DNA of 64,000 bases from Eledone cirrhosa (taxonomy: Eukaryota). The DNA lies in assembly GCA_964016885.1 (NCBI GenBank), contig OZ024743.1:2604001-2668000 (forward strand), written 5' to 3'. The position numbers were made by a program, and so were the translations under genes. The first letter of the stretch is position 1; each line of letters opens with the position of its first letter. The notes under the pieces are model-generated. The model had not been told where the DNA came from. It made no database searches and was given only the letters and a program-made list of their open reading frames with translations. This document shows, piece after piece, positions 4,301 to 50,024 of the stretch.

Positions 4301-5049
4301 TGGCTAAGTCTCCCAGGTAGGAAATTTTACTCATGTTACTGAGTTTCACCAGGCCTCTGACATTCAGCAGCAGCACTGGTGTGACTTTTGGGGTGCCAGT
4401 AATGGTTGTCGGTATGACACCTGGTCTAGTGTCAGCGGCGGCCACTCTGGGTCCCTTAACTGTGGTGGTCTCGAGTGTTGGTGTGGATGACCCTGGCTCT
4501 GGAGACGATGCAGCCAGGTCAGCTGTCCCACAATCTTCTCTGCCATCACTAAAAAATTTTTCTGCTCTGCTGCTGCCATCTGTATCTCGTCGGCATGTGC
4601 GTGCCTTCTCCTTGTTGCTACGGCACGCGCGACATCGGCATACTTCTGGAGCGGCTTATTTTTGGCTTTGGCTGGGGTATGTTGTGCGAGTAGGATGGGC
4701 ATAGTTCGTTTGAGACCTAGGGTGGGCGAATCTGCATCCCATCCCTGTCTCTCCATGCCAGCATGTCCCGTTCTTGAAAAACTTGCACATTACTTGGGTT
4801 TTTTTGCTCCCAGTGTCTCGGTGCTTTCTGTTCTTCCTTTGAACAGTTGTCCACTGGTCCCTCTGCACTTGGTTCTCCTTCAGAAGATGATTTCGCTTTT
4901 CACCTTTGCCTTTTGCTTGTTGGTTGCCTGGCCTGCCCTCCCTGTCTGTGGCGGAGGGTATATAATTTTCTTTTAGGTCCGTGCTTGTGCTCTCCTCCTT
5001 TTTCTTTTTCCTTTTCTTTCTCTTTCTCCTCATCCCTCTCTTCGGTTTT
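1342..5049 (-). mobile_element. CR1-group non-LTR retrotransposon, family 1, 5'-truncated and frameshifted copy
   Basis: ORFs 2433-4445 and 1410-2414 encode APE (LLNVRGL, ETHL, GDFNLP, SDHN) and RT ([15 protein letters not shown]); ORF1 remnant with CCCH finger at 4364-5049; 3' tail GAAACAGGTAAAAGAG; highly similar to the copy at 49.1-53.1 kb. Confidence 0.93.
1410..4445 (-). pseudogene. ORF2 (APE endonuclease + reverse transcriptase) split by a frameshift near 2415-2435
   Basis: 670-aa and 334-aa ORFs are colinear with the 993-aa ORF at 49943. Confidence 0.9.
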
Positions 5050-7458: not shown

Positions 7459-8574
7459 CATCATCATTATCATCACCGTTTTACGTCCGTTCTTCCACGC
7501 TAGCATGGGTTAGACGGGTTGTCCTGTTGTGGGCAGTGTCTGGTCGGCTGACCATGCCTTGCTCATACAGGAACTGATCTGGCTTGATTTCTACAGCTGG
7601 ATGCCCTTCCTAACACCAACCTCATTTACAGTGAGTGCTGGGTGCTTTTTCGTGGCGCCTACACGTCCACTTTACAGTGTTGGCTGGGTGCTTTTTTGCC
7701 GTGGCACCTCCACGACCACCTTGCGGTGGGGGGTGTGGGGGCATATTGTTTATATGCTTCAGCATGTACCCATGGTAGGTCGGGTACTCTGTATTACTGC
7801 GTGACGCCAGAAGTCACGGTCGTGTGTCATTGTCTTTGAGAGGTGTAATTGGGTAAGGTCGGCTTTTATCACCTCATCCCAGGTCATCTTGGGTCTCCCC
7901 ACACCGCGGTTTCCATCAACTTCTAGTGCTCTGCACCTTTTTATGCAGCTGTCATCCTTCATACGCATCACATGTCCATACCAGCGCAACCGCCTTTCCT
8001 GCACACAGCATTTGATTCCTCTTATGCTCAGTCTCTCTCTCAATTCATTTATGCTTTGTCGTTCACGTATATTACTGTTACACATCCATCGGAGCATGCA
8101 GGCTTCGTTTCTCTCTAATCTACATAAGTCTTCCACCTTCAGCGCCCAGGTCTCACTACCATGCAACATCGCCGTTCGGATACACGCATCATACAGTCTG
8201 CCTTTCATTCTGACGGAGAATCCTTTTGTAGCTAGCAGTGGTAGTAGATCCCTAAACTTCTTCCATCCCTTTCTTACCCTAGTTATTGTACTTTCTGAGC
8301 ACCCACCTCCGTTGCAAATTCGGTCACCTAGGTAGCAGAAGCTGTCTACTGTTTCTACAGGGCCCTCCCAGAGATTGGTGGTACTTGTTTCCTGTGGCTG
8401 TTTGCTGCTTGCTGTTTCAGTACAGCTGCTGCATGTGAATCCTACATTCTTAATTAAGCTTCCTGAGATCCCGCTACATCTCTTGTGTACCCATTGTTTG
8501 CATTTGGGGCAGAGAATGGAGTTCCTACCTACACCTTTCCTACATACTGAGCAAGGCCATTTCCCTGAGGGGAT
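7459..8574 (-). mobile_element. RTE-clade LINE family A, 5'-truncated
   Basis: ORF 7759-8574: PHD-like finger, [33 protein letters not shown]; 3' UTR and (GAT)n tail. Confidence 0.92.
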
Positions 8575-8694
8575 ATATAAATGTATATATGTATATATAA
8601 ATGTATATATATATATGTATATATATATGTATATATGTATATGTATATATATATATATGTATATGTATGTATATGTATATATATATATATATGT

Positions 8695-8728
<34 letters not shown>

Positions 8729-8782
8729 GTATATATATGTATATGTATAGATATATATGTATGTATATATATGTATATATAT

Positions 8783-8837
<55 letters not shown>

Positions 8838-8858
8838 TATATATATGTATGTATATAC

Positions 8859-8914
<56 letters not shown>

Positions 8915-8937
8915 GTATATATATATATGTATGTATA

Positions 8938-8976
<39 letters not shown>

Positions 8977-8990
8977 ATGTATATATATAT
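8575..8990. repeat. (TA)n/TATG array
   Basis: Directly visible. Confidence 0.95.
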
Positions 8991-9321
8991 CATCATCATT
9001 TCATTTTATGTCCGCTTTTTCTCTGCTTGCAAGGGTGGGACAGGAACTGATTCTGGCTTGATTTCTACAGCTGGATGCCCTTCCTAACACCAACCTCATT
9101 TACAGCGGGTGCTTTTTTGCCGTGGCACCTCCACGACCACTTTGCAGTGGAATGATATGGACCCCAGTCCCTATCATCTCATTGCTACAGCTGAGTAAAC
9201 TGGAGCAATGTGAAATAAAGTGTCTTGCTCAAGGAAACAACACATCACCCGGTCTGAGAATTGAACTCACAACCTTTCGATTGCAAGGCCAATGCTCTAA
9301 CCACTAAGCCATGTGCCTTCA
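8991..9321 (-). mobile_element. tRNA-derived SINE with RTE-type 3' end
   Basis: Minus strand: A box TGGCTTAGTGG (9301-9311), B box GAGTTCAATTC (9258-9268), CORE-like TCCTTGAGCAAGACACTT, 3' end matching RTE-C, (GAT)n tail; four copies in the window. Confidence 0.9.
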
Positions 9322-9347
9322 TATGTATGTATATATATATGTATATG

Positions 9348-9404
<57 letters not shown>

Positions 9405-9405
9405 G

Positions 9406-9436
<31 letters not shown>

Positions 9437-9627
9437 GTATATATATATATGTATATGTATATATATGTATATGTATATATATATATATGTATATGTATAT
9501 ATGTATATGTATATATATATATATGTATATGTATATATGTATATGTATATATATATGTGTATATATGTATATGTATGTATATATGTATATGTATATATAT
9601 ATGTATATATATATATGTATATATATA

Positions 9628-9658
<31 letters not shown>

Positions 9659-10004
9659 GTATATACATATATATGTATATATATATATGTATGTATATAT
9701 ATGTATATATATATATGTATATATATGTATATATATATATATATGTATATATATATGTATATATATGTATATATATATATATATGTATATATATATGTAT
9801 ATATATATGTATATATATATATGTATATATATATATGTATATATATATATGTATATATATATATGTATATATATATATGTATATATATATATGTATATAT
9901 ATATATGTATATATGTATATATATGTATATATGTATATATATTTCTGTATATATGTACATGTATATATATATATATGTATGTATATATATATATATGTAT
10001 ATAT
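9322..10004. repeat. (TA)n/TATG array
   Basis: Directly visible. Confidence 0.95.
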
Positions 10005-11358
10005 CATCATCATCATCATCATCATCATCACCGTTTTACGTCCGTTCTTCCACGCTAGCATGGGTTAGACGGGTTGTCCTGTTGTGGGCAGTGTCTGGTC
10101 GGCTGACCATGCCTTGCTCATACAGGAACTGATCTGGCTTGATTTCTACAGCTGGATGCCCTTCCTAACACCAACCTCATTTACAGTGAGTGCTGGGTGC
10201 TTTTTCGTGGCGCCTACACGTCCACTTTACAGTGTGGGCTGGGTGCTTTTTTGCCGTGGCACCTCCACGACCACCTTGCGGTGGGGGGGGGGGGGGCATA
10301 TTGTTTATATGCTTCAGCATGTACCCATGGGAGGTCGGGTACCCTGTATTACTGCGTGACGCCAGAAGTCACGGTCGTGTGTCATTGACTTTGAGAGGTG
10401 TAGTTGGGTAAGGTCGGCTTTTATCACCTCATCCCAAGTCATCTTGGGTCTCCCCACTCCGCGGTTTCCATCAACTTCTAGTGCTCTGCACCTTTTTATG
10501 CAGCTGTCATCCTTCATACGCATCACATGTCCATACCAGCGTAACCGCCTCTCCTGCACGCAGCATTTGATTCCTCTTATGCTCAGTCTCTCTCTCAATT
10601 CCTTTATGCTTTGTCGTTCACGTATATTACTGTTACACATCCATCGGAGCATGCAGGCTTCGTTTCTCTCTAATCTACGTAAGTCTTCCACCTTCAGCGC
10701 CCAGGTCTCACTACCATGCAACATCGCTGTTCGGATACACGCATCATACAGTCTGCCTTTCATTCTGAGGGAGAAGCCTTTTGCAGCTAGCAGTGGTAGT
10801 AGTTCCCTAAACTTCTTCCATCCCGTTCTTACCCTAGTTATTGTACTTTCTGAGCACCCACCTCCGTTGCTAATTCGGTCACCTAGGTAGCAGAAGCTGT
10901 CTACTGTTTCTACAGGGCCCTCCCAGAGATTGGTGGTACTTGTTTCCTGTGGCTGTTTGCTTGCTGTTTCAGCACAGCTGCTGCATGTGAATCCTACATT
11001 CTTAATTAAGCTTCCTGAGATCCCGCTACATCTCTTGTGTACCCATTGTTTGCATTTGGGGCAGAGAATGGAGTTTCTACCTACACCTTTCCTACATACT
11101 GAGCAAGGCCATTTCCCTGAGGGGATCTGGGTTCTGTTTTCTCGTCTACTTACAAGGACCTTAGTCTTTGTCATGTTGACTTTGAGGCCCTTTCTCTCTA
11201 GTCCCTGCTTCCAGGTTTGGAATTTATTCTCTAGTTCTACCATAGATTCAGCTATGAGTGCGAGGTCATCAGCATACAGGAGTTCCCATGGGCATCCGGT
11301 CTTAAACTCCTCCGTTATTGCCTGCAGGACTATGATGAACAGGAGAGGGCTAAGAACA
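10005..11358 (-). mobile_element. RTE family A, 5'-truncated, open frame from LSPLLF to the stop codon
   Basis: [20 protein letters not shown]-like finger, RTE C-terminal motifs; near-identical to 39082-40213. Confidence 0.93.
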
Positions 11359-11749
<391 letters not shown>

Positions 11750-13550
11750 GACATCCAGACAAAAGATTTACAACAGCTCTGGCTAGCAGAATATGGGATT
11801 TGAAAGATCAAGGTATCCAATATAAATTGGATTGGTCCATTTTGAACCAATCTAAAGAATATGCAAGAGGAACAAGAAAATGCACGCTCTGCATAAACAA
11901 AAAATATTGGATTTTGCAAAACCTTAAATCACAAAAGACCTGCCTAAACACAAAGACAGAAATTTTCACCAGTTGCCCACACATGAAATCACACCTGCTT
12001 TCCAGCTCATATAAACTTAACACACTTTCAGATACTTATCCTCGATAAGCTCTTATTATTCTCTTTAAGACTACCTATTCTGATTTACTTTCATTTTTAA
12101 CCTTATTATTAATTTCATTTTTTTTTAATTTTATTTTATTTATTTTTTTTTTATTTTTATTTTTATTTTTTTTTTATTTTTATTTTTATTTTTATTTTTA
12201 TTTTTATTTTTTTTTTTACTTTACATCCACCACTAAACTCCCCTCCTCCTTTAATCTCCGATTCACTTACCTAATATCTTCACTTTCCACTTTTTACTTC
12301 CCTATTTTCTTCACTTGCGTTTTCCACTCCAGATATTTTCTGTTATTTCACAGCCAATTTTATATTTTTATATTAGTACTCACTTATTCACAAGGCTGTT
12401 TTTACACCCTGTATCTATGTGTCTGAGCGTCTTTATGTGTGTATACTTTCTGTATATGTACACGAACGCCTCCGTATTGGCGCGCGTGTGCGTGTATATA
12501 TATATGTGTATGTATGTGTGTTTTTATATGTGTTTTTACATCTAAGTTTTTTTACATTCTTATTTTTATGTGTGTGCATGTAAGCGGGTCAACGTGCGTG
12601 AGTATGTATGTGTGTGTGTGTATACAGTATGGGGCAAGGTGTATGTATATATATATGTGCATCCTGTGTGTGTATGTATACTTGCATACGCTTTTGTCTG
12701 CACGTTTTGCGTGTATATATATTTTTTTATAAATATATGTGTGTATGTACACGTGTGCCTTGTTTTCTTTTCTTTGAAATTTTTTCTTTCTAAATTATTG
12801 TTCCATTTTTATAAATATATCGAGAATGATACTTTCTTTTTACTATTACACTCCCTTACCTCTTTTTCTTCCGCATATCAGTGTACGCGCGTGTTTATAC
12901 GCGTGCCTTCATATTCTTATAATGTATCTAATACCCTGTTTTTCTGTATACCTGTCAACCGGACACTCATATCATGTCTGTGTCTGTAGTTACATATACA
13001 CAGATATACTTCCCCTCACACATATATTTACGCACGCATTTTCACTATACACACACATTTGTACATACATACATATGTACATCTGTGAGTGTATATACAT
13101 ACATATACACACACCTAACTATATTTCTTAAAAATTTTTTTTATATATTTTACATGTCTATTGTATTACCTTTATCTATATTTATGTAATTTTTTTTGCA
13201 TTTCTTGAGGAGACTTTCCAAATATTTAGCTATGTTTTATATTGCCTCGTCCGACGAACGAATGAAGACGTTTCTTTCGTATTCGCCTTATTCGGGAAAC
13301 CTCTGGTAATGAGGTAATTATATTGTATTGTTTTTTATACATTAAATTTTGCTCTGGTACTTACATAGAGCACTCTTCACTCCTATGACTTTTTCTGTTT
13401 TCAACGGAAACTTCAATACTTATACAACTCCCAAGGAAATGATCGCAGCATATTCTACATCTTTATGAGATTGGCACCTTCCAGCCCTTTTAAAGTCGAG
13501 CACTCTTCAGTCAATAGGATTTTAAACCAATACTGAACATGGATAAATAC
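11750..13550 (+). mobile_element. Penelope-like element 3' remnant (end of GIY-YIG domain, low-complexity 3' region, terminal repeat with hammerhead)
   Basis: Frame ending 12048 reads [12 protein letters not shown]...WSIL...KCTLC...LNTKTEIFTSCPH, typical of PLE endonuclease C-termini; hammerhead at 13241-13318. Confidence 0.75.
13241..13318 (+). ncRNA. Type I hammerhead ribozyme motif (CCGACGA core variant)
   Basis: Stem I ATTGCCTCGT/ATGAGGTAAT; core CCGACGA; stem II CGAATGA/TTATTCG; GAAA; stem III CC-TCT-GG; predicted cleavage after GUA at 13308. Confidence 0.7.
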
Positions 13551-13553
13551 ACT

Positions 13554-13669
13554 AGAGTTTTCAAGTCGCTGGCTGGACTAAAAAGTCACACACGTTCAAC
13601 ACATCGGTAGGGGTTCTCCTACATGGATATAAAGTAGTGGCCGTACTCGAAAACGAGTTGGCAGCCACC
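13554..13669 (+). mobile_element. 3' fragment of non-autonomous RTE-derived family D
   Basis: Matches the 3' end of 41007-41614 (GTACTCGAAAACGAGTTGGCAGCCACC). Confidence 0.88.
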
Positions 13670-13763
13670 ATGTATATATATATGTATATGTATATGTGTA
13701 TATATATATATGTGTATATATATATGTGTATATATATATGTATATATATATATACACATATAT

Positions 13764-14009
13764 ATCGTGTAGGTGTCACGACAAAAAAACATACAGTCCA
13801 CGCTGTAATGTGGCCATGTAGGCAACACGGTAAAAACCTCCCAGACCCACACTGTAAATGTGGTTGGTGTTAGGAAGGGCATCCAACTGTAGAAAACCTG
13901 CCAGACAGTCCTATGCGAGCAAGACAATCACTCTTGCCTCAAGTGGGACTACCCCCGTCCAAACCCATGAAAGCGTGGAACACGGACGTTAAACGTTGAT
14001 GATGATGAT
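13764..14009 (+). mobile_element. RTE family B, 3' UTR-only insertion
   Basis: Reverse complement of about 14020-14272; ends GGACGTTAAACGTT(GAT)n. Confidence 0.9.
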
Positions 14010-14019
14010 ATATGTATAT

Positions 14020-16161
14020 CATCATCATCATCATCATCAACGTTTAACGTCCGTGTTCCACGCTTGCATGGGTTTGGACGGGGGTAGTCCCACTTGAGGC
14101 AAGAGTGATTGTCTTGCTCGCATAGGACTGTCTGGCAGGTTTTCTACAGTTGGATGCCCTTCCTAACACCAACCACATTTACAGTGTTGGTCTGGGAGGT
14201 TTTTACCGTGTTGCCTACACGGCCACATTACAGCGTGGACTGTGTGTTTTTTTGTCGTGACACCTACACGATCTCATTTGTTTCGGCCTATGGCGCGGCA
14301 CCAACATAACTTTACATGGGAGGTGGTGGTGTGGATGGGGTGGGGGTGGTGGTGGTGGTGGGACGGGGTGTATTTTGTTAGAGATGCCTACTGGTTGGAG
14401 TAGGTTTTACTATATATTTAGGTAAGGCGGGTCTTCTCTGTTACTGAGTACCGCCAAAGGTCTCGGTCCAGTGACATTGTCTTGGAGAGGTGTAAGTGTG
14501 TGATGTCGGAGTTTATCAGCTCGTCCCAGGTTTTTCTAGGTCTGCCTATTCCGTGACTACCGTCTATCTTTATTGCCCTGCACTTTGTTATACAGCTATC
14601 GACTTTCATGCGCATCACGTGTCCATACCAACGTAGCCTTCTCTCGAGTAAACAACATCTGATCCCTCTTATCTCTAATTTTTTCCTTAGTTCGTTTATG
14701 CTTTGCCGTTCACGTATATTACTGTTACACATCCAGCGGAGCATGCAAGCTTCGTTCCTCTCTAGTCTGCGTATATCCTCTGCACACAATGCCCAGGTCT
14801 CACTGCCATGCAGCATTGCTGTTCGTATGCAGGCATCGTACAACCTGCCTTTCATTTTTAGGGAGAACCCTTTAGCAGCTAATAGTGGTATAAGCTCTCT
14901 GAACTTTTTCCAACCAGTTCTGACTCTAGCTACAGTACTTTCAGAGCACCCTCCCCCACTGCTGATTTTATCGCCCAGGTAACGGAAGCTGTCTACTATA
15001 TCTATAGAACCCTCTGCGCAATTGAAAGAGCTAGTATTTTGTGGGCACTTGCTGCTACTTATTGCACCAGAGCACTGGCCACATGTAAAATCTATGTTCT
15101 TAGTTAGCTTACCTGTGATCCCACTACATCTTTTATGCACCCATACTTTGCATTTAGGACATAAAATGGAGTTTCTACCTACGCCTTTCCTACACACCGA
15201 GCACGACCATTTCCCAGAAGGGACCGCCGCCTTGTTTTCTTTCCTACAAACTAGAACTTTAGTCTTAGCCATGTTAATTTTAAGTCCTTTTGATTCTAGG
15301 CGGTGCTTCCATGTTTGGAATTTCTTCTCTAGCTCGGCCATTGATTCCGCTATGAGTGTCAGGTCGTCTGCGTATAGGAGTTCCCATGGGCAGCCGGTCT
15401 TGAACTCCTCTGTTATAGCCTGAAGGGCAATAATAAATAGTAGGGGGCTCAGAACAGCGCCCTGATGGACGCCAACTTTTACGCTAAACTCTTCACTATA
15501 TTCGTTGTTAATTCTAACCTTGCTGACTGTTTCTTTATACATGGCTTGTATAGCTCTCACAAGCCATTCGTCAACGCCTAGTTTTCTAAGAGCCCACCAG
15601 ATAATGGAGCGGGGGAATCTGTTGAAGGCTTTCTCCAAGTCGACAAAAGCTAAGTAGAGGGGTTTACCTTTAGCTAGGTACTTCTCCTGTAGTTGTCGTA
15701 CAATGAAAAGAGCGTCTGTGGTACTTTTGCCTGACACAAACCCGAACTGCATTTCATCTAGGTCAATTCTCTCTCTGATTAGTTGCGCTATTACTTTTTC
15801 CGTGACCTTCATGACCTGGTCGATTAATTTAATGCCTCTATAGTTACTCCTATCTAGGGCGTCTCCTTTACCCTTATAACAGTTAACGATGATGCTGCTA
15901 TGCCAGTCCTTCGGAACAACCCCATTCTGTACGACTTGGTTAACTGTGCGGGTGACCATGGTGTGTCCCACCGTGCCAGATGCCTTCTGCATCTCAGCAA
16001 CTATTTCCGAAGGCCCAGCCGCCTTACCCGTCTTCATATCCTTGATTGCCGTACTTATTATACTCCCCTCGACTAACACTGCTGGTCCCTCTATTGGGTC
16101 GATATGGGGGAGACTGTCTTTCTCCCATTTATTCTCCTCATTTAGTAGCCTTTCATAGTGA
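14020..16161 (-). mobile_element. RTE-clade LINE family B, 5'-truncated, 553-aa open RT frame
   Basis: ORF 14418-16079: [35 protein letters not shown]-like finger; (GAT)n tail. Confidence 0.94.
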
Positions 16162-17331
<1,170 letters not shown>

Positions 17332-19686
17332 CATCATCATCATCATCATCATCATCATTTTACGTCCGCTTTTCCCTGCTTGCAAGGGTGGGACGGGTCT
17401 TATTCAGCACAGCATCTCTCCACTCGTCACGGTCCCTCGTCATCTCCACCGTGAGCTTCAATGATCTGAGGTCTGTTCTCACCACCTCCGCCCATGTTTT
17501 TCGTGGTCTACCTCTACCACGTCTTCCTTCAACTGGCATTTCCTGGCACTTCTTCACCCATCGGTCATCCTCCATGCGCATCACATGTCCATACCACCTC
17601 AGTCTCCTCTCCCGTACACTACATTCTATCCCTCTCAGACACAGTTTCTCTCTCAACACATTTATGCTGGGTCGTTCACGCACATTTACACTGCACATCC
17701 AACGGAGCATGCTTGCCTCATTTCTCTCCAGCCGTCGCATATCTTCTGCGGTAGCTGCCCATGTCTCACTACCATGCAGCATCGCGCTCCTCACACAGGC
17801 ATCATACTACCGGCCTTTCGTACGCAGGGAGAAACCCTTCTTCGTCAACAGAGGAAGCAGCTCCCTAAACTTCTTCCAACCCGTCCTTATTCTAGATACT
17901 ATGGCCTCGGAACACCCTCCTCCCATGCTAATCTGATCTCCTAGGTACCGGAAGCTATCCACCACTTCTATAGCGCCCTCTCGCATTTGAAAAATGTGTC
18001 TATCAGTGCGACTTCTACTGTCTAATTTCCCTGTACATCTACTGCATACATATTTCTCCCTACCTGTTAGTTTGCCTGCTATCCCGCTACATCTCTTGTG
18101 TACCCAGGACCTACATTGTGTGCATTTTATAGAATTTATGCCAGTTCCTTTTCTGCATATCGAACATGGCCATTTCCCTGACGGAATCAGGGTTTTGTCC
18201 TCTTTTCTACTCATCAACACTTTTGTCTTAGCTAGATTTACTCTCAGTCCTCTTGCTTCCAACTGCTGTTTCCATAGCCGGAATTTATTCTCTAGCTCCT
18301 CTACTGATTCTGCCATAAGAGCCAGATCGTCAGCATAGAGAAGTTCCCATGGACAGCCAGTCTTAAACTCCTCTGTTATGGCTTGGAGGACTATAATGAA
18401 CAAGAGCGGGCTGAGGACCGAACCCTGATGTACTCCTACTTGTATCTGGAATTCCTCACTAAACTCCATTCCTACCCTGACTTTACTGAGAGTACCTCTG
18501 TACAAAGTTTGCACTGTCCTTACAAGCCATTCCTCAACACCCAGCTTCCTTAGGGACCACCAGATGACAGATCGGGGTACCCTATCAAAGGCCTTCTCTA
18601 GGTCAACAAAGGCTAAGTATAGTGGCTTATTCTTCTCTAAGAACCTCTCTTGCATTTGTCTCACCAAGAAGAGGGCATCTGTTGTACTCTTCCCAGGCAC
18701 AAAACCAAACTGCATCTCATCTAGTTTGACCCTTTCTCTAATTAGTTGTGCTAGAATCCTTTCTGCCACTTTCATAACCTGATCTATCAGTTTTATACCC
18801 CTATAATTGCTCCTCTCCAAAGCATCCCCTTTACCTTTGTAGCAATTTATGAGAATACTGCTGCACCAGTCTTTGGGTATGACACCACCATATATAGCCT
18901 GATTGATTATGCGTGCAACCAGTTTAGTGCCTACGTCCCCTGATGCCTTCAGCATCTCAGCAACTATTCCCGATGGTCCGGCCGCCTTACCATTTTTCAT
19001 TTCCCTAATCGCCTCTTGGACCCTATATTCGTCAATCTCAATAGCTGGTCCCTCTGTCGGATCTACCAAGGGTAATTTCTCTCTCTCCCATTCGTTCTCC
19101 ACATTCATCAGTCTCTCATAATGACATTTCCAGGCCTCCTTTTTCTGGTCATTCGTGACACTAAGTACACCGGCATCATCCCGGACACATTTATCACCAA
19201 CAACATCCTGATTTGCATTGACACACTGCCTTGCAATGTGGAACACCGCACGCCTCTGATCTTCCCGTCGCAGAACATTGGCAAACCTCCTACTCTCTGC
19301 CTCCCTGCGTGCTAAGTACACCTGACGTCTAGCTTCTCTCTTAGTGGCTGTATATTCTTCCCTACTCCCACCCTTATTCCAAGCCTTCCATGCTAGTCTT
19401 TTGTCTCTAATAGCCTTATCTACACTGCTGTTCCACCACCAGGTCACTCTCTGTCTGGTTGGAGCTCTGCTCCAGCCACAGGTTTCATCAGTAGCCTTCA
19501 GCAAGTTGTCACGTAAGAACTTCCAGTTATTATCTATGTCATACGTCTCTAAATCGTCTTCTTTTTCGTCATATACATCTTGAAGGGCTTTCCTAAATTT
19601 GAATTTTAGTGAAAGGTCTTTTAGCTTCCAGACCTTTCTTCTCCACACCTTCCTATATGTCTCATTCCATCTCTTGCTTACTGAGA
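17332..19686 (-). mobile_element. RTE-clade LINE family C, 5'-truncated; ORF stop abuts the tail (no 3' UTR)
   Basis: ORFs 17807-19648 (613 aa, RT) and 17360-17794; ends [13 protein letters not shown]-stop then (ATG)n. Confidence 0.93.
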
Positions 19687-19864
19687 TATATACTTATATA
19701 TATACATATATATACATATACTTATATATATACTTATATATATACATATATATATATATGTATATATATGTATATATATGTATATATATATATATATATA
19801 CATGTATATATATATATACTTATATATATACATATATATATATGTATATATGTATATATATGTA

Positions 19865-19923
<59 letters not shown>

Positions 19924-19993
19924 ATATATATATACATATATACATACATATATATATATATACTTATATATATACATATATATATATATATAT
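19687..19993. repeat. (TA)n array
   Basis: Directly visible. Confidence 0.95.
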
Positions 19994-22900
19994 AACCTAC
20001 ATAAAAATAACCACTACCACAGTCACCAACAGTCTTCTAAACAGGAAACTTCTTACTCTTTTTTAGCCATAATGAATCTGGCATAAGAACTGGAAAAAAA
20101 CATTCAAGCTATCACCCAGCACCACCCTCCACTATCACCCCACTGCACAAACTCCCATTGCTGCCATTAACAAACAAACAAATTAACAACACACCAAAAC
20201 AATTAAAACCATCCACTCTCGCCTCTACATTTTTGCTTAACGCCCAAGGCATCAGCCCTTCCACCAATACTCAAAAATGGAAGATCAAATTCCTGGAGGA
20301 CTGGATTGATGTCCATCCAAACCACATCCCTTTCTTCGTCCTCACTGAAACCCATCTCAGTAACCTCCACTTGGAAGCCGAGGTGAAAGTGAAAAATTTC
20401 AAAGCCATCCGTGCTGATCGCGCTGGCAGAAGAAAGGGCGGAACTGCCATTTATGTCCATAATTCTTTCTCAACAGAGGCTATGAACATATTCACTAATG
20501 GATACTGTGAGGCAGTCACTGTATTCAGTCAAACCAACAACCTATTAGTAGTTGGGCTCTATAGGCCACCCCAAACGCCTGTACCATGCTTCAAGGAATG
20601 CCTCAACAGCATAGTGTTTCATCCAAGAGTGTCACCCTGACAACATCTTAATGATGGGGGACTTCAACCTCCCCGGAGTTGACTGGTCCACAAACAGCCT
20701 GCCACCAGGTTCTTCTACCTCAACCTCTGACAGGGAAGCTGTGGAATCGCTTCTTGACTTCATGGATGATTTCTTCCTATCCCAACTGGTGCTCGAACCA
20801 ACGAGGTGCCACAAAAACGTCCTAGACTTAATTTTCAGCAATAACACTGACAATATCCACAATATTGCAGTGGAGAAAACTCTACTCTCTGATCATGACA
20901 TGGTTCTCTGTGATCTGAGATTCCACCGTCCAATATACAAACCCAATGTCATCTCTCCTGTCCATCCGTTTGACGCTATGGATTTCCACAATGCAAACTG
21001 GGAAGCGATCAGTCATGATCTTGCACATGTCGACTGGTCCTTCACGCACACTCATACACCCACTAACATCAAAAAGTCCTGGCAGACATTTGTGGACACT
21101 GTTACAAACATATGTGCTAAACACACCCCATTAAGAACTATAAACAAATCTAAGAGCAGAATCCCTAGAAATAGAAAAACGCTCATCAGAAAAATTAAGA
21201 GAACGAACAAAAAAATCAACAAGCTGAAATACTGTCAGCAGCAACACATCAACTTGACTGCCATTTCATCACTAGAGATTAAAAAACATAACCTCCAAAA
21301 CAACATAATGTCCCTCATCAACAATCAGAGAAGAGCTGAAGAGGCCTGGGCCATTGAGAAGATCAAACTCAATCCCAAAGTGTTCTTTTCATTTGCAAAA
21401 AAACACAAAATCACTGGCTCTACTGTTGGCCCTCTAATTGATGAAAATGGCACTCTTCAAGACAATGCTAAAACCATGGGTGAGATACTGCAGAAACAAT
21501 ACTGCTCTGTTTTCAGCAATCCTGATATGGCCGATCTGGGCTGTATCGGCGATGTTACTCCCCATTACACCTTATCGGATATAACGTTTGGCGGCAATAA
21601 AGGAAATCAAGCATAATTCAGCAGTAGGTCCCGATAGGTTCCCTGCTTGTGTCTTGAAGGCGTGTCAACACCAACTTGCATCTCCTCTTGCCAATCTGTG
21701 GCGGAACTCACTGGATGCTGGATATGTGCCAGAAAACCTTCTATCCCAGTCTGTTGTCCCAGTTTTCAAAAAGGGAAACAAATCCCTTGCCGTGAATTAC
21801 CGTCCAATCTCACTCACCTCTCATATCATTAAGGTATTTGAGAGAGTGGTGAGATCGCGAATGACCCACTTCCTTGAGAGTAACACTATGCTGAACTCCA
21901 ACCAGCATGGATTCCGTAATGGAAGGGATTGCCTGACGCAGCTACTGCATCACTTTGATGACATTTTGAGAGCCTTGGGAGAGGGTTCCAACACTGATGT
22001 TATCTACCTTGATTTCAGCAAGGCCTTTGACAGGGTTGATCATAACATTCTACTGAGAAAGCTGTCCAATATTGGTGTCAGTGGAAAGCTGCGGCAGTGG
22101 ATCAAGAGCTTCCTGTCAAACAGAACCCAATATGTTGTAGTTGAGGGAGTCAAATCAAGCCCAGCCAAAGTCAGTAGTGGGGTCCCACAAGGCACTGTGT
22201 TGGGCCCACTTCTCTTCATCATCTGTATTAATGACATCACTGACATCATCAAACACAGCAACATTAAAATTTTCGCTGATGATTCCAAGCTCCAAAAGGT
22301 CATCAATGGCGTGGATGACCGGATAAGCCTTCAGTCAGACCTACTGGCTGTTACCCAATGGGCGGAAAAGAACAACATGTTACTGAACGAAGACAAATTC
22401 GAACTGATCCACTTTGGAAAAGAGGATGCTCTGAAACTCCCGTACTCCCTTCCTTCCGGGGAAACTCTCGTGGCATCTAACAACATCAGAGACTTGGGAG
22501 TAACCGTGGACAGCAACATAAGCTGGACCACGCATATAAGCAGCAAAGTTGACATGGCCCACAGAATGTGTTCCTGGATCCTCAGAACCTTCGAGTCGAG
22601 AGATTCCCGCACCATTATCCTTCTCTTCTCTACTTTTGCCCGACCACACCTTGAATACTGTTGTCCACTGTGGTCTCCCCACACGAAACAAAGTATCATG
22701 AAACTTGAAGCTCCTCAAAGGGCAATCACGAAAAAGATAGATGGCATGTCAGACCTTGACTACTGGGGTCGATTAGAAAACCTGAAACTTTACTCACTCC
22801 AACGTCGTCGTGAGCGTTATATTATCTGCATGATGTGGAAAATGTTCCATCATCACTGCCCAAATGATGTTGGCATCGCCTTCAAGATACACCCAAGGCT

Positions 22901-23248
22901 TGGGCCCCGTGCTATCCGTCCCATTCAAAAATCTAAATCGCAACTCATAACAACAATACGGCACAATTATTTCACCTCAATCGGCCCTGCTCTCTTCAAC
23001 ATCACACCAGGACACGTCAAAACAAAAACTGACCACACAAAATTCAAGAAGTCTTTGGACAAATTCCTCCAAGTAATCCCGGACAAACCACCCACACCCG
23101 GATATGTCTCCACAAACAGTAGTTCTCTTCTCGAATGGGCCATGGTGCCCAAATCCTTAATTGAAAGACTTCGCCAGGTGGTACTATTAAGTTAGACATG
23201 GCCTGGGCCAATACTGGCCAAAACATTTCAAAGTTATTCAAAGTTATT
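19994..23248 (+). mobile_element. CR1-group LINE family 2 (end of ORF1 plus complete but frameshifted ORF2)
   Basis: ORFs 20158-20640, 20651-21616, 21588-23195: [48 protein letters not shown]; tail (TTCAAAGTTA)2. Confidence 0.92.
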
Positions 23249-30970: not shown

Positions 30971-36084
<5,114 letters not shown>

Positions 36085-36090
<6 letters not shown>

Positions 36091-37309
36091 CGACCTTGAG
36101 AAAGCCTTTGACAGAGTTCCACGTGCTGTAATCTGGTGGGCTCTTAGAAAACTAGGAGTAGATGAATGGCTTGTGAAAGCTGTACAAGCCATGTATAAGG
36201 GAGCAGTCAGCAAAGGTAGGATTAGCAATGAGTATAGCGAGGAATTTAGCGTACAGGTTGGGGTCCACCAATGATCTGTTCTTAGCCCCGTCCTGTTCAT
36301 CATAGTCCTGCAGGCAATAACGGAGGAGTTTAAGACCGGATGCCCATGGGAACTCCTGTATGCTGATGACATCGCACTCATAGCTGATTCTATGGTAGAA
36401 CTAGAGAAGAAATTCCAAACTTGGAAGCAGGGACTAGAAACAAAGGGTCTCAAAGTCAACATGACAAAGACTAAGGTCCTTGTAAGTAGACGAGGAAACA
36501 GAATCCAGATCCCCTCAGGGAAATGGCTTTGCTCAGTATGTAGGAAAGGTGTAGGTAGGAACTCCATTCTCTGCCCCCAATGCAAACAATGGGTACACAA
36601 GAGATGTAGCGGGATCTCAGGAAGCTTAATTAAGAATGTAGGCTTCACATGCAGCAGCTGTGCTGGGACAGCAAGCAGCAAACAGCCACAGGAAACAAGT
36701 ACCACCAATCTCTGGGAGGGCTCTGTAGAAACAGTAGACAGCTTCTGCTACCTAGGTGACCGAATTAGCAGCGGATGTTCAGATTGTTCAGAAAGTACAA
36801 TAACTAGGGTAAGAACGGGATGCAAGAAGTTTAGGGAACTACTACCACTGTCAGCTGCAAAAGGCTTCTCCCTCAAAATGAAAGGCAGACTGTATGATGC
36901 GTGTATCCGAACAGCGATGTTGCATGGTAGTGAGACCTGGGCGCTGAAGGTTGAAGACTTACGTAGATTAGAGAAAAACGAAGCCTGCATGCTCCGATGG
37001 ATGTGTAACAGTAACATACGTGAACGACAAAGCATAAATGAATTGAGAGAGAGACTGAGCATAAGAGGAATCAAATGCTGTGTGCAGGAGAGGCGGTTGC
37101 GCTGGTATGGACATGTGATGCGTATGAAGGATGACAGCTGCATAAAAAGGTGCAGAGCACTAGAAGTTGATGGAAACCGCGGAGTGGGGAGACCCAAGAT
37201 GACCTGGGATGAGGTGATAAAAGCCGACCTTACCCAATTACACCTCTCAAAGGCAATGAAACACGACCGTCACCTCTGGCGTCACGCAGTAATACAGAGT
37301 ACCCGACCT
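36085..37309 (+). mobile_element. RTE family A, 5'-truncated, runs into the assembly gap
   Basis: FVDLEKAFD...YADD...PHD-like finger...VIQSTRP; one in-frame stop near 36272. Confidence 0.92.
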
Positions 37310-37509
37310 NNNNNNNNNNNNNNNNNNNNNNNNNNNNNNNNNNNNNNNNNNNNNNNNNNNNNNNNNNNNNNNNNNNNNNNNNNNNNNNNNNNNNNNNNNN
37401 NNNNNNNNNNNNNNNNNNNNNNNNNNNNNNNNNNNNNNNNNNNNNNNNNNNNNNNNNNNNNNNNNNNNNNNNNNNNNNNNNNNNNNNNNNNNNNNNNNNN
37501 NNNNNNNNN
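37310..37509. other. Assembly gap (~200 N)
   Basis: Run of N. Confidence 0.99.
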
Positions 37510-37642
37510 GGGGGCGAAAGAAAGTGTGAGCAACAGAGAGAACGGGGAAGCAGTAAGAGAGAAACAGACAAACACAGCCGAGGTAAATATATATAAAAAA
37601 CATGAGAAGAAAGAAGAATACTGCGTGGTTGCAAATGGGATA
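37510..37642. repeat. Fragment of an unclassified repeat also present at 55050-55590
   Basis: GGGGAAGCAGTAAGAGAGAAACAGA...CTGCGTGGTTGCAA shared with 55456-55590. Confidence 0.7.
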
Positions 37643-37684
37643 TGTATATATATATATATATAATGTATATATATATATATAATG

Positions 37685-37719
<35 letters not shown>

Positions 37720-37722
37720 GTG

Positions 37723-37807
<85 letters not shown>

Positions 37808-37896
37808 GTATATATATATGTATATATATATATATATGTATATATATATGTATATATATATATATGTATATATATATGTATATATATATATATGTG

Positions 37897-37929
<33 letters not shown>

Positions 37930-37980
37930 GTATATATATATGTATATATATATATGTATGTATATATGTATATATATATA

Positions 37981-38726
37981 TGTGTGCAGAGGATATACGC
38001 AGACTAGAGAGGAACGAAGCTTGCATGCTCCGCTGGATGTGTAACAGTAATATACGTGAACGGCAAAGCATAAACGAACTAAGGAAAAAATTAGAGATAA
38101 GAGGGATCAGATGTTGTTTACTCGAGAGAAGGCTGCGTTGGTATGGACACGTGATGCGCATGAAAGTCGATAGCTGTATTACAAAGTGCAGGGCAATAAA
38201 GATAGACGGTAGCCACGGAATAGGCAGACCTAGAAAAACATGGGATGAGCTGATAAACTCCGACCTCACACACTTACACCTCTCCAAGACAATGTCACTG
38301 GACCGTGACCTTTGGCGGTACTCAGTAACAGAGAAGACCCGCCTTGCCAGTAGGCATCTCTAACAAAATACACCCCGTCCCGCCACCACCCCCACCCCAT
38401 CCACACCACCCCGTTCTATGTAAAGTTATGTTGGTGCCGCGCCATCCAGGCCGAAACAAATGAGATCGTGTAGGTGTCACGAGAAAAAAAACACACAGTC
38501 CACGCTGTAATGTGGCCGTGTAGGCAACACGGTAAAAACCTCCCAGACCCACACTGTAAATGTGGTTGGTGTTAGGAAGGGCATCCAACTGTAGAAAACC
38601 TGCCAGACAGTCCTATGCGAGCAAGACAATCACTCTTGCCTCAAGTGGGACTACCCCCGTCCAAACCCATGCAAGCGTGGAACACGGACGTTAAACGTTG
38701 ATGATGATGATGATGATGATGATGAT
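37981..38726 (+). mobile_element. RTE family B 3' portion
   Basis: [20 protein letters not shown] to ORF end, 3' UTR, (GAT)n tail. Confidence 0.92.
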
Positions 38727-39030
38727 ATATATATGTATGTATATATATATATGTATGTATATATATATGTATATATATATATATCTATATATGTATATAT
38801 ATATATATGTATGTATATATATATGTATATATGTATGTATGTATATATATATGTATATATATATATATCTATATATGTATATATATATATATGTATATAT
38901 ATATATGTATATCGACGAAATGCCTACGACGGTTGGAAGGCCACTGATGAAGGACAAACTTTTTCATATGTAACCCATTTGCAACGCCGCAGCTCCATTA
39001 TTATCATATATATATATATGTCTATATATG

Positions 39031-39069
<39 letters not shown>

Positions 39070-39081
39070 GTATATATATAT

Positions 39082-40212
39082 CATCATCATCATCATCATC
39101 ACCGTTTTACGTCCGTTCTTCCACGCTAGCATGGGTTAGACGGGTTGTCCTGTTGTGGGCAGTGTCTGGTCGGCTGACCATGCCTTGCTCATACAGGAAC
39201 TGATCTGGCTTGATTTCTACAGCTGGATGCCCTTCCTAACACCAACCTCATTTACAGTGAGTGCTGGGTGCTTTTTCGTGGCGCCTACACGTCCACTTTA
39301 CAGTGTGGGCTGGGTGCTTTTTTGCCGTGGCACCTCCACGACCACCTTGCGGTGGGGGGGGGGGGGGCATATTGTTTATATGCTTCAGCATGTACCCATG
39401 GGAGGTCGGGTACCCTGTATTACTGCGTGACGCCAGAAGTCACGGTCGTGTGTCATTGACTTTGAGAGGTGTAGTTGGGTAAGGTCGGCTTTTATCACCT
39501 CATCCCAAGTCATCTTGGGTCTCCCCACCCCGCGGTTTCCATCAACTTCTAGTGCTCTGCACCTTTTTATGCAGCTGTCATCCTTCATACGCATCACATG
39601 TCCATACCAGCGTAACCGCCTCTCCTGCACGCAGCATTTGATTCCTCTTATGCTCAGTCTCTCTCTCAATTCATTTATGCTTTGTCGTTCACGTATATTA
39701 CTGTTACACATCCATCGGAGCATGCAGGCTTCGTTTCTCTCTAATCTACGTAAGTCTTCCACCTTCAGCGCCCAGGTCTCACTACCATGCAACATCGCTG
39801 TTCGGATACACGCATCATACAGTCTGCCTTTCATTCTGAGGGAGAAGCCTTTTGCAGCTAGCAGTGGTAGTAGTTCCCTAAACTTCTTCCATCCCGTTCT
39901 TACCCTAGTTATTGTACTTTCTGAGCACCCACCTCCGTTGCTAATTCGGTCACCTAGGTAGCAGAAGCTGTCTACTGTTTCTACAGGGCCCTCCCAGAGA
40001 TTGGTGGTACTTGTTTCCTGTGGCTGTTTGCTTGCTGTTTCAGCACAGCTGCTGCATGTGAATCCTACATTCTTAATTAAGCTTCCTGAGATCCCGCTAC
40101 ATCTCTTGTGTACCCATTGTTTGCATTTGGGGCAGAGAATGGAGTTCCTACCTACACCTTTCCTACATACTGAGCAAGGCCATTTCCCTGAGGGGATCTG
40201 GGTTCTGTTTTC

Positions 40213-40213
<1 letters not shown>
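39082..40213 (-). mobile_element. RTE family A, 5'-truncated
   Basis: ORF 39385-40213; near-identical to 10005-11140. Confidence 0.93.
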
Positions 40214-40246
<33 letters not shown>

Positions 40247-40295
40247 CATATATATACATACATATATATATACATACATATATATATATACATAC

Positions 40296-40348
<53 letters not shown>

Positions 40349-40374
40349 CACACCTATATATATATATACACATA

Positions 40375-42051: not shown

Positions 42052-42313
42052 GCTTTGTGCAGTGCCTTTGCTCACTATAAAAGCTTCACAGCACAGGCAT
42101 TGCTTTATATCTGGAGATCTCTCTGCACTGGTCGTCACATGGTACCATGGGCCCAGCACTATGTGTCAATAATTGTCACAAGTGTAGTGTTTGTACCAGA
42201 GTTTTCAAGTCGCTGGCTGGACTAAAAAGTCACATTCGTTCAGCGCATTGGTAGGGGTTCTCCTACATGGATATAAAGTAGTGGCCGTACTCGAAAACGA
42301 GTTGGCAGCCCCC
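42052..42313 (+). mobile_element. Family D, 5'-truncated copy
   Basis: Matches 41352-41614. Confidence 0.88.
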
Positions 42314-42568
42314 ATATATATATATGTATGTATATATGTATGTATATATATATGTATATATATATGTATGTATATATGTATGTATATATATATGTATGTA
42401 TATATATATATATGTATGTATATATATATGTATGTATATATATATATATGTATGTATATATATGTATATATATATATATGTATATATATATGTATATATA
42501 TATATATGTATATATATATGTATATATATATGTATATATATATGTATATATATATGTATATATATATG

Positions 42569-42613
<45 letters not shown>

Positions 42614-42614
42614 G

Positions 42615-42645
<31 letters not shown>

Positions 42646-42694
42646 GTATATATATATATGTGTATATATATATATGTATATATATATATATGTG

Positions 42695-42725
<31 letters not shown>

Positions 42726-42776
42726 GTATATATATATGTATATATATATATATGTATATATATATGTATATATATG

Positions 42777-42807
<31 letters not shown>

Positions 42808-42808
42808 G

Positions 42809-42871
<63 letters not shown>

Positions 42872-42872
42872 G

Positions 42873-42919
<47 letters not shown>

Positions 42920-42971
42920 GTGTATATATATATATGTATATATATATTTTATATATGTATATATATATGTA

Positions 42972-43018
<47 letters not shown>

Positions 43019-43075
43019 GTATATATATATATATGTATATATGTATATATATATGTATATGTATATATGTATATA

Positions 43076-43151
<76 letters not shown>

Positions 43152-43180
43152 TATATGTGTATATATATATATATGTATAT
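42314..43180. repeat. (TA)n/TATG array
   Basis: Directly visible. Confidence 0.95.
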
Positions 43181-44800
43181 CCACACATACAGACAGACAA
43201 CAGGATTACCCATGGGATCCAGCCTTTCGAGCCTGCTGGCCATCACCTACATGAACCAGCTAGAATGCCGAGCCCTCAACACCTGCCATTCCCATGCCTT
43301 CTTCACCCGATATGTAGATGGCATACTCATCCTTACATCATCCCGTGAGGAGGCAGAGAAAATATACACAACATTCTCCAGCATGGACGCCAGTATAAAG
43401 TTCAGCATGGAACACCCCGATGACCGTGGATCCCTATCCCTACTGGACCTCCAACTCAGGGTAACAGAGGAAGGCAACATCCACACCTGCTTCTATAAAA
43501 AATCCGCCAGCAGGGACCTGTTCGTACATTTCAGATCGGCCCTCCCACTCGGTGCCAAGTTCGGATACATAAAGAACGAACTGGCACGTATCAAGAACAA
43601 ATGCACCGACGCCAGAGACCGAGACACACACACCAAACATTTCCTGGAAGTACTCAAACTGAACGGATACACGACATCCACCACAAACCGTGCCAGAAAG
43701 AACAGAGGACACCACACCCGAGGCACTAACACTTGCTTCCTGAAGCTCCCACACTTCAGTGAAGAAACAACAACAGCCATCCGCAGAGCCATCAGACGAG
43801 AGGGACTGGATATCCAACTGGCCCACTCGGGTCCTTCTCTGCGTGGACGGCTGGCCAAGAGACACTCCACCAGACATGACAACTGCTGCAGACTAGCCAA
43901 CTGCCCCATCAACGACACAGACCTATGCCACCAGGCTTACGTAGTATACAGACTAGAGTGTGACAAATGCAACAACTTTTACGTAGGTAGCACCACCAGA
44001 CCACTCCACATAAGAATAAAAGAACACCTCAATACTAACGCTTCCTCATTTAAGAAACACCTAGTTAAATGCAAAAACACCGATAAAAACATAACAGTTA
44101 GGATAGAAACTAAGGAAAGAAACCTCGGCAATCTTAGAATTAAGGAAGCACTTATTATAGATAAAACACATCCACCAATCAATAATAGACTAGAGCTCAA
44201 CACCCAATTTATAACCTGATAGGGCCTCTAGCCCCATATTTACACACCCCACACACACGCATGCTTACACCTCCACTTATTCTCTCTCACACATACACAC
44301 ACAAAACCAGTTCTAACACCAGATAACACCTACCCCCCACTTTTACGATTAGACCTATCTTCCCACACTCACACACACACACATACCTACACCTTCATGC
44401 ATTCTCCCACACACATATACAGGCACGTATATAAAATTAAAATAAAGAAAAAAACCCTAAACAAACCCCTCTTAAAGGGAGACTACTCTTTATCCACCTA
44501 ATTTTAATTCTTTGATATTAGAGTTAGAACAGATACTCTATACTATTTCCGGTCAGCATGGCTTGGCTAGAGATTTAAGACGCTTGTTTGAGACCTTTAC
44601 TTCCCTCCGAAGAAGAGATATTATCTCGAAAATTAAGGACATTTAAATAAATTCAAGGTGAAAGACGAATTCTCATCAATATCTTTTACCATTGCTTTCT
44701 TTTTTCTATGTCCATACCTGCATTGTTTTGGCCTTATTACACATATTCAAACGTTTATACCTCATTACACAATGCTTCAAGTGAACTATAACCTCCCGCC
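43181..44800 (+). mobile_element. Penelope-like element, 5'-truncated (RT core/thumb + GIY-YIG + terminal repeat)
   Basis: [19 protein letters not shown] (degenerate YVDD), LSLLDL, Cys-rich linker, [29 protein letters not shown]; stop at 44219; hammerhead-like motif at 44601-44640. Confidence 0.9.
43188..44219 (+). pseudogene. PLE reverse transcriptase / GIY-YIG endonuclease, C-terminal ~340 aa
   Basis: Non-repetitive part of ORF 42324-44219. Confidence 0.87.
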
Positions 44801-49080: not shown

Positions 49081-50024
49081 ATGGACTGCATGCAGGAAAA
49101 ATGTGAAATCAGTAGTCAGCGAAACTGGTCAAAGATGGAACTAGCGGTTTTGATCAAGGGGTGGACCATGGCTGATGGGTCTCCACCAAGCAAAAATATG
49201 GCGGAGAACCTGAAGAGCCATGGGTTTCTGAGGACCCTGGCACAGATAGAGAGAAAGAGAAAAGAAATTGAGAAGGCGTATGTCCTCATAGCGCCTCATA
49301 TGGCGATGCTAAGCCGTGTCCTCAGGGAGGAGAAAACCGAAGGGAGGGATGAGGAGAAGGAGAGGAAAAAGAAGAAGAAAGGGAAAAAGAAAAGGAGAGC
49401 ACAAGCACGGACCTGAAAGAAAATGATATACCCTCCGCTACAGGCAGGGAGGGCAGGCCGGGCAACCAACAAGCTAAGGGCAAAGGTGAAAAGCGAAATC
49501 ACCTTCCGAAGGAGAACCAAGCGCAGAGGGACCAGTGGACAACTGTTCAAAGAAAGAACAGAAAGCACCGAGACACTGGGAGCAAAAAACCCCAAGTAAT
49601 GTGCAAGTTTTTCAAGAACGGGACATGCTGGCATGGAGAGACAGGGATGGGATGCAGATTCGCCCACCCTAGGTCTCAAACGAACTATGCCCATCATACT
49701 CGCGCAACATGCCCCAGCCAAAGCCGAAATAAGCCGCTCCAGAAGTATGCTGATGTCGCGCGTGCTGCACCAACAAGGAGAAGGCACGCACATGCCGACG
49801 AGATACAGATGACAGCAGCAGATCAGAAAAATTTTTTAGTGATGGCAGAGAAGATTGTGGGACAGCTGACCTGGCTGCATCGTCTCCAGAGCCAGGGTCA
49901 TCCACACCAGCACTCGAGACCACCGGAGTTAAGGGACCCAGAGTGGCCGCCGCTGACATCAGACCAGGTGTCATACCGACAGCCATTACTGGCACCCCAA
50001 AAGTCACACCAGTGTTGCTGCTGA
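49081..50024 (+). pseudogene. LINE ORF1: Myb/SANT(trihelix)-like N-terminus, charged linker, CCCH zinc finger; frameshift in the purine run near 49390
   Basis: WSKMELAVLIKGW...MAENLKSHGFLRTLAQIERKRKEIEKAY; [23 protein letters not shown]. Confidence 0.7.

Follow-up and report, generated by a model that had tools for sequence, protein, structure and literature searches.

A conserved, probable −1 frameshift signal inside ORF1 of CR1-type LINEs from Eledone cirrhosa

Introduction

How does a LINE produce its endonuclease and reverse transcriptase (RT) when the second reading frame opens inside the first and has no AUG ahead of the enzyme? This question is raised by 64,000 nucleotides of the Eledone cirrhosa genome (assembly GCA_964016885.1, contig OZ024743.1, positions 2,604,001 to 2,668,000 of the forward strand), here called the window, which comes from a 3.0-Gb genome rich in (TA)n and LINE pieces. 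One review treats the route of LINE ORF2 translation as unsettled and names reinitiation or internal entry as candidates (PMC3894237). Reinitiation at an AUG has been shown for SART1 and is proposed for L1 (PMC5972666), and PMC5009743 describes a frameshift inside gag for HeT-A and unconventional initiation for L1. The window contains two LINE families, A and B, with the same U_UUU_UUA heptamer at the point where ORF2 opens, which a preliminary description had taken as independent support for a clade-wide recoding signal.

Results

The ORF1/ORF2 junction of family B

The family B copy (19992–23248, + strand) is 5′-truncated and decayed, lies between (TA)n arrays and is 98.1% identical from 19992 to an intact copy, L052, from which it differs by a 2-nt deletion at 20613 and a 17-nt deletion at 21588. 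The junction was found as first described: the ORF1 frame reads TCT TTT TTA GCC, with the slippery heptamer T_TTT_TTA in ORF1 phase (S-F-L, 20059–20065, +) followed by G at 20066, and the −1 frame of ORF2 is bounded by a TAA (20038–20040, +) located 18 nt 5′ of the heptamer and in the identical place in 30 of 30 loci. The 5′ part of ORF2 (20041–20640, +) consists of an AUG-less leader that runs open into the endonuclease motif FLLNAQG (20230–20250), and its first AUG (20482) falls inside the endonuclease. The remainder of ORF2 (20615–23195, +), comprising the end of the endonuclease, the RT and the C-terminal LYSLQRRRERY, is split over two frames in the window copy; in the intact copy, ORF2 is an APE endonuclease followed by an RT (Pfam PF03372, PF14529 and PF00078, no other family). 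At the 3′ end, a short tandem repeat consists of two units of TTCAAAGTTA (23226–23248, +). Such a repeat and 5′ truncation are features of the CR1 lineage and both are present here; we take the CR1 label from RT and C-terminal motifs, the 56 rows of the RT tree all being unnamed.

The ORF1 tail (AIMNLAKELEKNI...SHCCH*, 20066–20170, +) overlaps the 5′ part of ORF2 and ends at the family stop TAA (20168–20170), found in 29 of 29 other copies. The preliminary description had the ORF1 frame reaching SHCCH here. It does not, as a premature TAA (20084–20086, +) private to the window copy intervenes; the 29 other top-scoring copies, chosen by likeness to the query, all read AAA at this place, and in them ORF1 runs 108 nt beyond the heptamer to SHCCH*. 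The 7-nt site lies within a 130-nt overlap. Because the window copy is truncated at ~19992, the identity of the family B ORF1 is known from sister copies alone. The full protein of 387 aa has a weak Myb-like start, a polyQ tract and two CCCH-type fingers (Pfam on the intact copy: weak Myb, E 0.004; CCCH-type finger, E 0.05 and 0.84), and the Atlas leads for the homologue P0169 are zf-CCCH, at 0.85 and below.

Among the first 100 of 649 genome matches of family B, which were anchored after the AG and were thus unselected for upstream likeness, the heptamer was intact in 92; three had T5, three T7 and one T8, and one was a truncation point.

Family A and its sister family C

Family A has the same arrangement. 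Its ORF1 (CCCH finger, ...QKNFLVMAEK...SHQCCC*; 49081–50024, +) has a frame broken near 49353–49416 in the window copy. The heptamer (N-F-L, 49832–49838, +) is followed by G, and the −1 frame opens 78 nt upstream; 20 of the 20 top loci have the heptamer. ORF2 (49754–52924, +) spans 1056 codons from stop to stop and is AUG-less before the endonuclease motif, its first Met being residue 100, downstream of the LLLN motif at 87. A second copy carries the heptamer on the − strand (4550–4556). The heptamer, its phase, the following G (49832–49839) and the AUG-less start of ORF2 are therefore shared by the two families, as had been claimed. The T tract is kept, with scattered changes, in all of the first 100 of 345 genome matches of family A, and in ~19 of these 100 copies CAT TTT TTA replaces AAT TTT TTA, which alters the residue and leaves the T residues untouched. 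In sister family C, which shares about 70–85% ORF2 identity with family B in decayed copies, TTTTTTAG was present in 17 of 22 readable copies (29 loci); many of the B-to-C changes in the ORF1 tail are synonymous in the ORF1 frame, as judged by eye.

That both ORF1s end in a His/Cys-rich tail is correct, although for family B only by way of sister copies. The tail is weak evidence, since the family A tail comes from reading the endonuclease LLL codons in +1, and we rejected the tail as support for recoding.

The same families bear on two other explanations of the tract. The first, already raised in the preliminary description, is that the tract that ends in TTTTTTAG acts as a 3′ splice site, with splicing linking the beginning of ORF1 to ORF2. 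Families B and C do have a good pyrimidine tract with TAG, and a G follows all seven U6A sites. However, no upstream exon was seen in the first 100 family B and first 100 family A genome matches anchored after the AG (199 show the T tract and one a truncation point), leaving no spliced copy in 200 matches, and no GT-AG joint was present at the junction in four contig sets of unrecorded type. In-phase donors are weak (best 2.8 bits in B and 0.3 in A, scored with a weight matrix). One relative, L269, reads TTTTTTGG, and the heptamers of family D and of L242, L147 and L153, described below, lack the AG. We give splicing the smallest probability of the explanations considered, a very low one.

In the second explanation, F-L, where an ORF1 helix begins, is kept for the protein, and the T run arises by chance or slips under RNA polymerase or reverse transcriptase, rare extra-T copies supplying the fusion. 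An x-F-L-x-helix is conserved in ORF1, the T7 found in 3 of 100 family B matches would join the frames, and two family D copies are fused in frame. Against this, T5 is also found in 3 of 100 matches; T5 and T7 are equally rare and indels are therefore unbiased. Young intact families spread while keeping ORF1 and ORF2 in two frames, protein constraint leaves third codon positions free, and the G_GGA_AAC and U_UUA_AAC sites of other elements obey tRNA slippage rules without being long homopolymers. This account is very improbable, if slightly less so than splicing.

Kinship of the two families and codon choice at F-L

A quick RT tree of 56 rows groups families A and B in a single clade (support 100). 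The earlier statement that they share no other sequence in this region holds for DNA and fails for protein: the ORF1s are homologous, both with a weak Myb-like N-terminus and CCCH fingers, and their ends can be aligned from a CCCH finger through x-F-L into a helix-like stretch. Their ORF2s share 370 of 943 residues, and 26 of 96 four-fold codons agree, which amounts to synonymous saturation; descent alone therefore does not preserve slippery codons. Given F-L and the codon use of each family, the chance of T_TTT_TTA is P 0.003 (B) and 0.0045 (A). As controls, the 82 F-L pairs of ORF2 bodies are T_TTT_TTA in 6 cases (8 with TTA or TTG), whereas the F-L that leads into the helix of ORF1 reads T_TTT_TTA in A, B, C, L243 and L287 and T_TTT_TTG in L269. 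Non-slippery F-L codons in relatives had been proposed as a counter-observation; all six CCCH-type elements having F-L use slippery codons. By the codon-use and recoding tests, conservation of the heptamer exceeds protein constraint. Since the two families are homologous yet saturated and the codon-use P values are low, the U_UUU_UUA site was probably inherited by both and maintained by selection acting at the RNA level rather than invented twice. The reading of a conserved recoding signal stands, and the word 'independent' is too strong for A and B, which belong to one clade.

The other CCCH-type elements extend this picture. The RT tree puts L243, L269 and L287, whose CCCH-type ORF1 has the same x-F-L-helix, on a distinct branch (support 98). 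The −1 frame begins 9 nt (L243) or 18 nt (L269) upstream of the site, and both of these elements have an ORF1 stop that falls within the endonuclease, beyond motif I. L225, the sole other element of the clade with DNA available and also CCCH-type, lacks F-L and has only A_AAA_AAC, which is largely explained by its protein sequence; 'clade-wide' thus applies to an in-phase heptamer and not to U_UUU_UUA. FF[R/S/G], the −1 reading of the site, occurs in 3 of 11 ORF2 leaders within the clade (0.37 expected), as counted in protein sequences only. Across elements, the −1 frame is closed 9–78 nt upstream of the heptamer; its stops make up 5–10% of codons in ORF1 bodies and are absent from the heptamer onward, an openness with P 0.003–0.05 per element (A, B, L243 and L269) that is overstated where the last codons are endonuclease.

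ORF1 profile searches recovered proteins already in the survey and, beyond these, a single family-A-like fragment, P0171, which keeps S-F-L-D and has an odd tail that fits a 1-nt loss also seen in decayed family A copies. The motif pattern LYSL[EQ]RRRERY occurs at 4685 genome places, and a degenerate version, aimed at other LYSL-type families of the E. cirrhosa genome, returned mostly mutated A, B and C copies. Viral contigs yielded a single short RT piece.

Survey of ORF1/ORF2 overlaps

An alignment of 46 ORF2s was used as the survey query. The elements were the top 80 metagenome loci out of 475 and the top 80 out of 375 loci from prokaryote genome records, the latter apparently stray animal contigs, together with seven more elements and further families of the E. 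cirrhosa genome; the foreign elements are single contigs. Many prokaryote genome records (L223–L301) hold entire animal-type LINE contigs, apparently from host contamination. The endonuclease start was readable in 84 elements. A long ORF1 overlaps ORF2 in −1 in 25 of them and in +1 in nine, and is in frame with it in ten; 36 are without a qualifying ORF1, and in four the region runs off the contig.

Of the 24 −1 overlaps analysed, 16 contain a strict in-phase X_XXY_YYZ heptamer, where 3.5 would be expected from their own background rate and 5.7 from synonymous recoding of ORF1. Wrong-phase heptamers numbered 0 and 2 among the same overlaps. The excess persists without A, B and C (13 of 21) and when the elements are merged into 18 lineages (13 with a heptamer; P 9e-7 against the stricter null). 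Eight overlaps lack a strict heptamer (L158, L223, L236, L237, L250, L268, L347 and L269, the last with Z = G), protein sequence largely accounts for the heptamers of L142, L144, L206 and L225 (null 0.54–0.86), and an AUG precedes the endonuclease in 10 of the 24. The 24 leave aside L240 (a duplicate of L242), L287 (whose ORF2 frame leaves the contig), family E (broken copies) and L251, which has 65 upstream codons and would only add a further miss to a lineage that counts as one.

Beyond the CCCH-type elements, U_UUA_AAC was found in two esterase-type elements, L147 and L242. Two other esterase-type elements (L143:1447–1487 and L231:480–520) have T_TTT_TTA with a stop two codons on and a 9-bp hairpin, the best classical signal in the set. 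A third lineage of this genome, also of CR1 type (D1 and D2; L411, L412 and L420–L428), has G_GGA_AAC directly before the ORF1 stop TAA, with overlaps of 19 or 52 nt that are AUG-less before the endonuclease; two D copies (L361 and L389) have ORF1 and ORF2 in one frame of 1381 codons. Family E (L431–L434), of CR1 type and represented by broken copies only, has a long AUG-less −1 overlap with an in-phase C_CCA_AAA shortly 5′ of the ORF1 stop. In L158, L236, L237, L250 and L251, a −1 overlap without a canonical heptamer is accompanied by a conserved GGGGGAAT near the ORF2 opening, and four of the five have an AUG at codon 5–6.

Other frame relations exhibited motifs of their own. In six of the nine +1 elements (L151, L155, L244, L265, L274 and L295), TTT C stands in ORF1 phase, in three of them as CCC TTT C, a likeness to PA-X-type +1 shift motifs. 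In five of the ten in-frame elements (L148, L199, L241, L247 and L339) the ORF1 stop is TGA or TAG followed by CAA or CAG, and four of these five are AUG-less before the endonuclease. CAR-YYA is a stop-readthrough context, and L199, with TGA CAG CTA, resembles it.

The window also holds many RTE-type LINE fragments (7759–19693, 33103–40353 and 57415–60477), nearly all adjoining (TA)n arrays, and a GIY-YIG-like (Penelope-type) fragment at 42282–44219; both labels are tentative and based on motifs. The sequence TTTTTTA CCCACAATGAATCT at 33901–33930 resembles the family B junction. It was discarded as a chance likeness, being the antisense of an RTE-type endonuclease.

Separate initiation of ORF2

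ORF2 might instead be made as a separate protein, by termination-reinitiation at near-cognate UUG, CUG or GUG codons beside the ORF1 stop, with the heptamer a by-product or relic. Reinitiation is the known LINE route according to two reviews (PMC5972666, PMC3894237), and suitable codons exist: TTG CTG lies in the ORF2 frame 7–10 nt 5′ of the ORF1 stop in B (20158–20163, +) and in C, and GTG TTG CTG CTG overlaps the stop in A (50015–50023). In L287 an AUG immediately precedes the endonuclease motif, beside the ORF1 stop. In one CR1 group of the survey, the frame of ORF2 relative to ORF1 varies among close relatives, and frame-independent routes therefore exist. Reinitiation nevertheless leaves unexplained the slippery codons, the enrichment of heptamers across elements and a −1 frame that is open for 25–63 codons back to the heptamer. 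The ORF1 stop of L243 and L269 is situated within the endonuclease, past motif I, and the CTG codons of family A are the endonuclease LLL motif itself. TTG CTG at 20158–20163 also gives the Cys-Cys of the family B ORF1 tail. We consider it unlikely that ORF2 is initiated separately in these families.

A different set of elements (L223, L235, L244, L245, L258, L259, L265 and L274) has a common TGTAAATA in the ORF2 leader, just 3′ of the ORF1 stop, which we liken to a Pumilio element. The frame relation varies among close relatives bearing TGTAAATA, which suggests frame-independent initiation in that group.

Stimulatory structures

A stimulatory hairpin or pseudoknot would be expected 5–9 nt from the heptamer. 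For A, B, C, L269 and L287, local folding predicted no stimulatory structure downstream of the site (z −1.1 to +0.5 for A, B and C; B −0.72 and +0.10, A +0.46 and +0.35), nor was one predicted for D1 or D2. A search for simple H-type pseudoknots was negative in A, B and C and gave one weak candidate, in L243. A strong hairpin was predicted only in the esterase-type L143 and L231, where its 9 bp begin 11 nt downstream (z −3.05 and −1.97). A GCCA...TGGC hairpin immediately 3′ of the heptamer was rejected as a stimulator, as it would sit within the ribosome.

Discussion

Families A and B share a layout in which an in-phase heptamer lies inside ORF1, ORF2 is in the −1 frame and no AUG precedes endonuclease motif I. 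From this arrangement and its conservation, the heptamer most likely serves this LINE lineage as a functional signal for −1 frameshifting, and these CR1-type LINEs probably make their endonuclease and RT as an ORF1–ORF2 fusion by programmed −1 frameshifting at U_UUU_UUA. In family B, the majority of ribosomes would continue to the ORF1 stop and yield a product of 387 aa (44.5 kDa). On a minority, tRNA-Phe and tRNA-Leu would re-pair from UUU UUA to UUU UUU, giving a fusion of ~1390 aa (158 kDa) that would retain the Myb-like N-terminus and both CCCH fingers and have ORF2 in place of the C-terminal helix. Slippage would set a low and fixed ratio of ORF2 to ORF1, as in Gag-Pol. With no stimulator predicted, the rate in A and B is likely low, at a few percent or less. 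A low rate agrees with the small need for ORF2p argued in PMC3894237.

The closest parallel is HIV-1 gag-pol, which, as described in PMC3458567, has the same U_UUU_UUA, in phase, inside an upstream gene that continues in frame 0, with the polymerase in the −1 frame and a G following. HIV-1 differs in having a stem-loop stimulator, whereas A, B and C have no predicted one. The host element here is a non-LTR retrotransposon without a protease, in which a fusion would remain whole. Among non-LTR elements, TRE5-A and TRE3-A of Dictyostelium are also of APE type and are said to require a −1 frameshift for ORF2 (PMC5911963); they are amoebozoan, target tRNA genes and have a C-terminal zinc finger, and the available text names no slippery site. 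For Paramecium non-LTR groups 1–3, ORF2 expression via frameshifting, reinitiation or readthrough has likewise been suggested from sequence, in a ciliate clade with a +1 frame or an in-frame stop and, in the text at hand, no named heptamer (PMC5405496). SART1, through UAAUG coupling, and L1, through unconventional reinitiation, meet the same need for low ORF2 output from a two-ORF RNA (PMC5972666, PMC3894237 and PMC5009743), but produce a separate ORF2p from a stop-start or a spacer, unlike the AUG-less overlap of 130–271 nt in A and B.

The two families resemble the CR1-lineage LINEs of PMC4120745 in having an ORF1 and an APE-RT ORF2, a short tandem 3′ repeat and 5′ truncation, and differ in their ORF1, with its weak Myb-like N-terminus and CCCH fingers. 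The ORF1 types I–V in Table 1 of that paper include no CCCH-finger ORF1, and Pfam found none of the type I–IV domains (RRM, CCHC, PHD, Tnp22 and esterase) in the A and B ORF1s, whose type thus lies outside that classification as far as the available text gives it; the same text mentions neither CCCH or Myb domains nor an overlap or frameshift. Frameshift and overlap are also unmentioned in the portion of PMC3905857 at hand. Our literature search found no description of CR1 frameshifting, with subscription papers, Repbase reports and supplements mostly outside its reach.

A broader reading is that Gag-Pol-like ORF2 fusion by recoding extends across much of the CR1 lineage, the signal being swapped along with ORF1 modules: U_UUU_UUA in a CCCH-type ORF1, where slippage would cut off the C-terminal helix and no RNA stimulator is present, U_UUA_AAC or U_UUU_UUA where an esterase-type ORF1 ends, G_GGA_AAC ahead of the stop where ORF1 is of another type, and, for in-frame elements, readthrough at UGA/UAG-CAR. 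We regard the prospects of this wider scheme as evenly balanced.

If the frameshift occurs as proposed, the active enzyme of CR1-type LINEs would be an ORF1–ORF2 fusion. Annotated ORF2 starts within the endonuclease would be wrong, and in-frame 'repairs' in consensus libraries would delete a genuine signal. With its U6A tract kept and no predicted stimulator, the site may serve as a natural model of low-level frameshifting.
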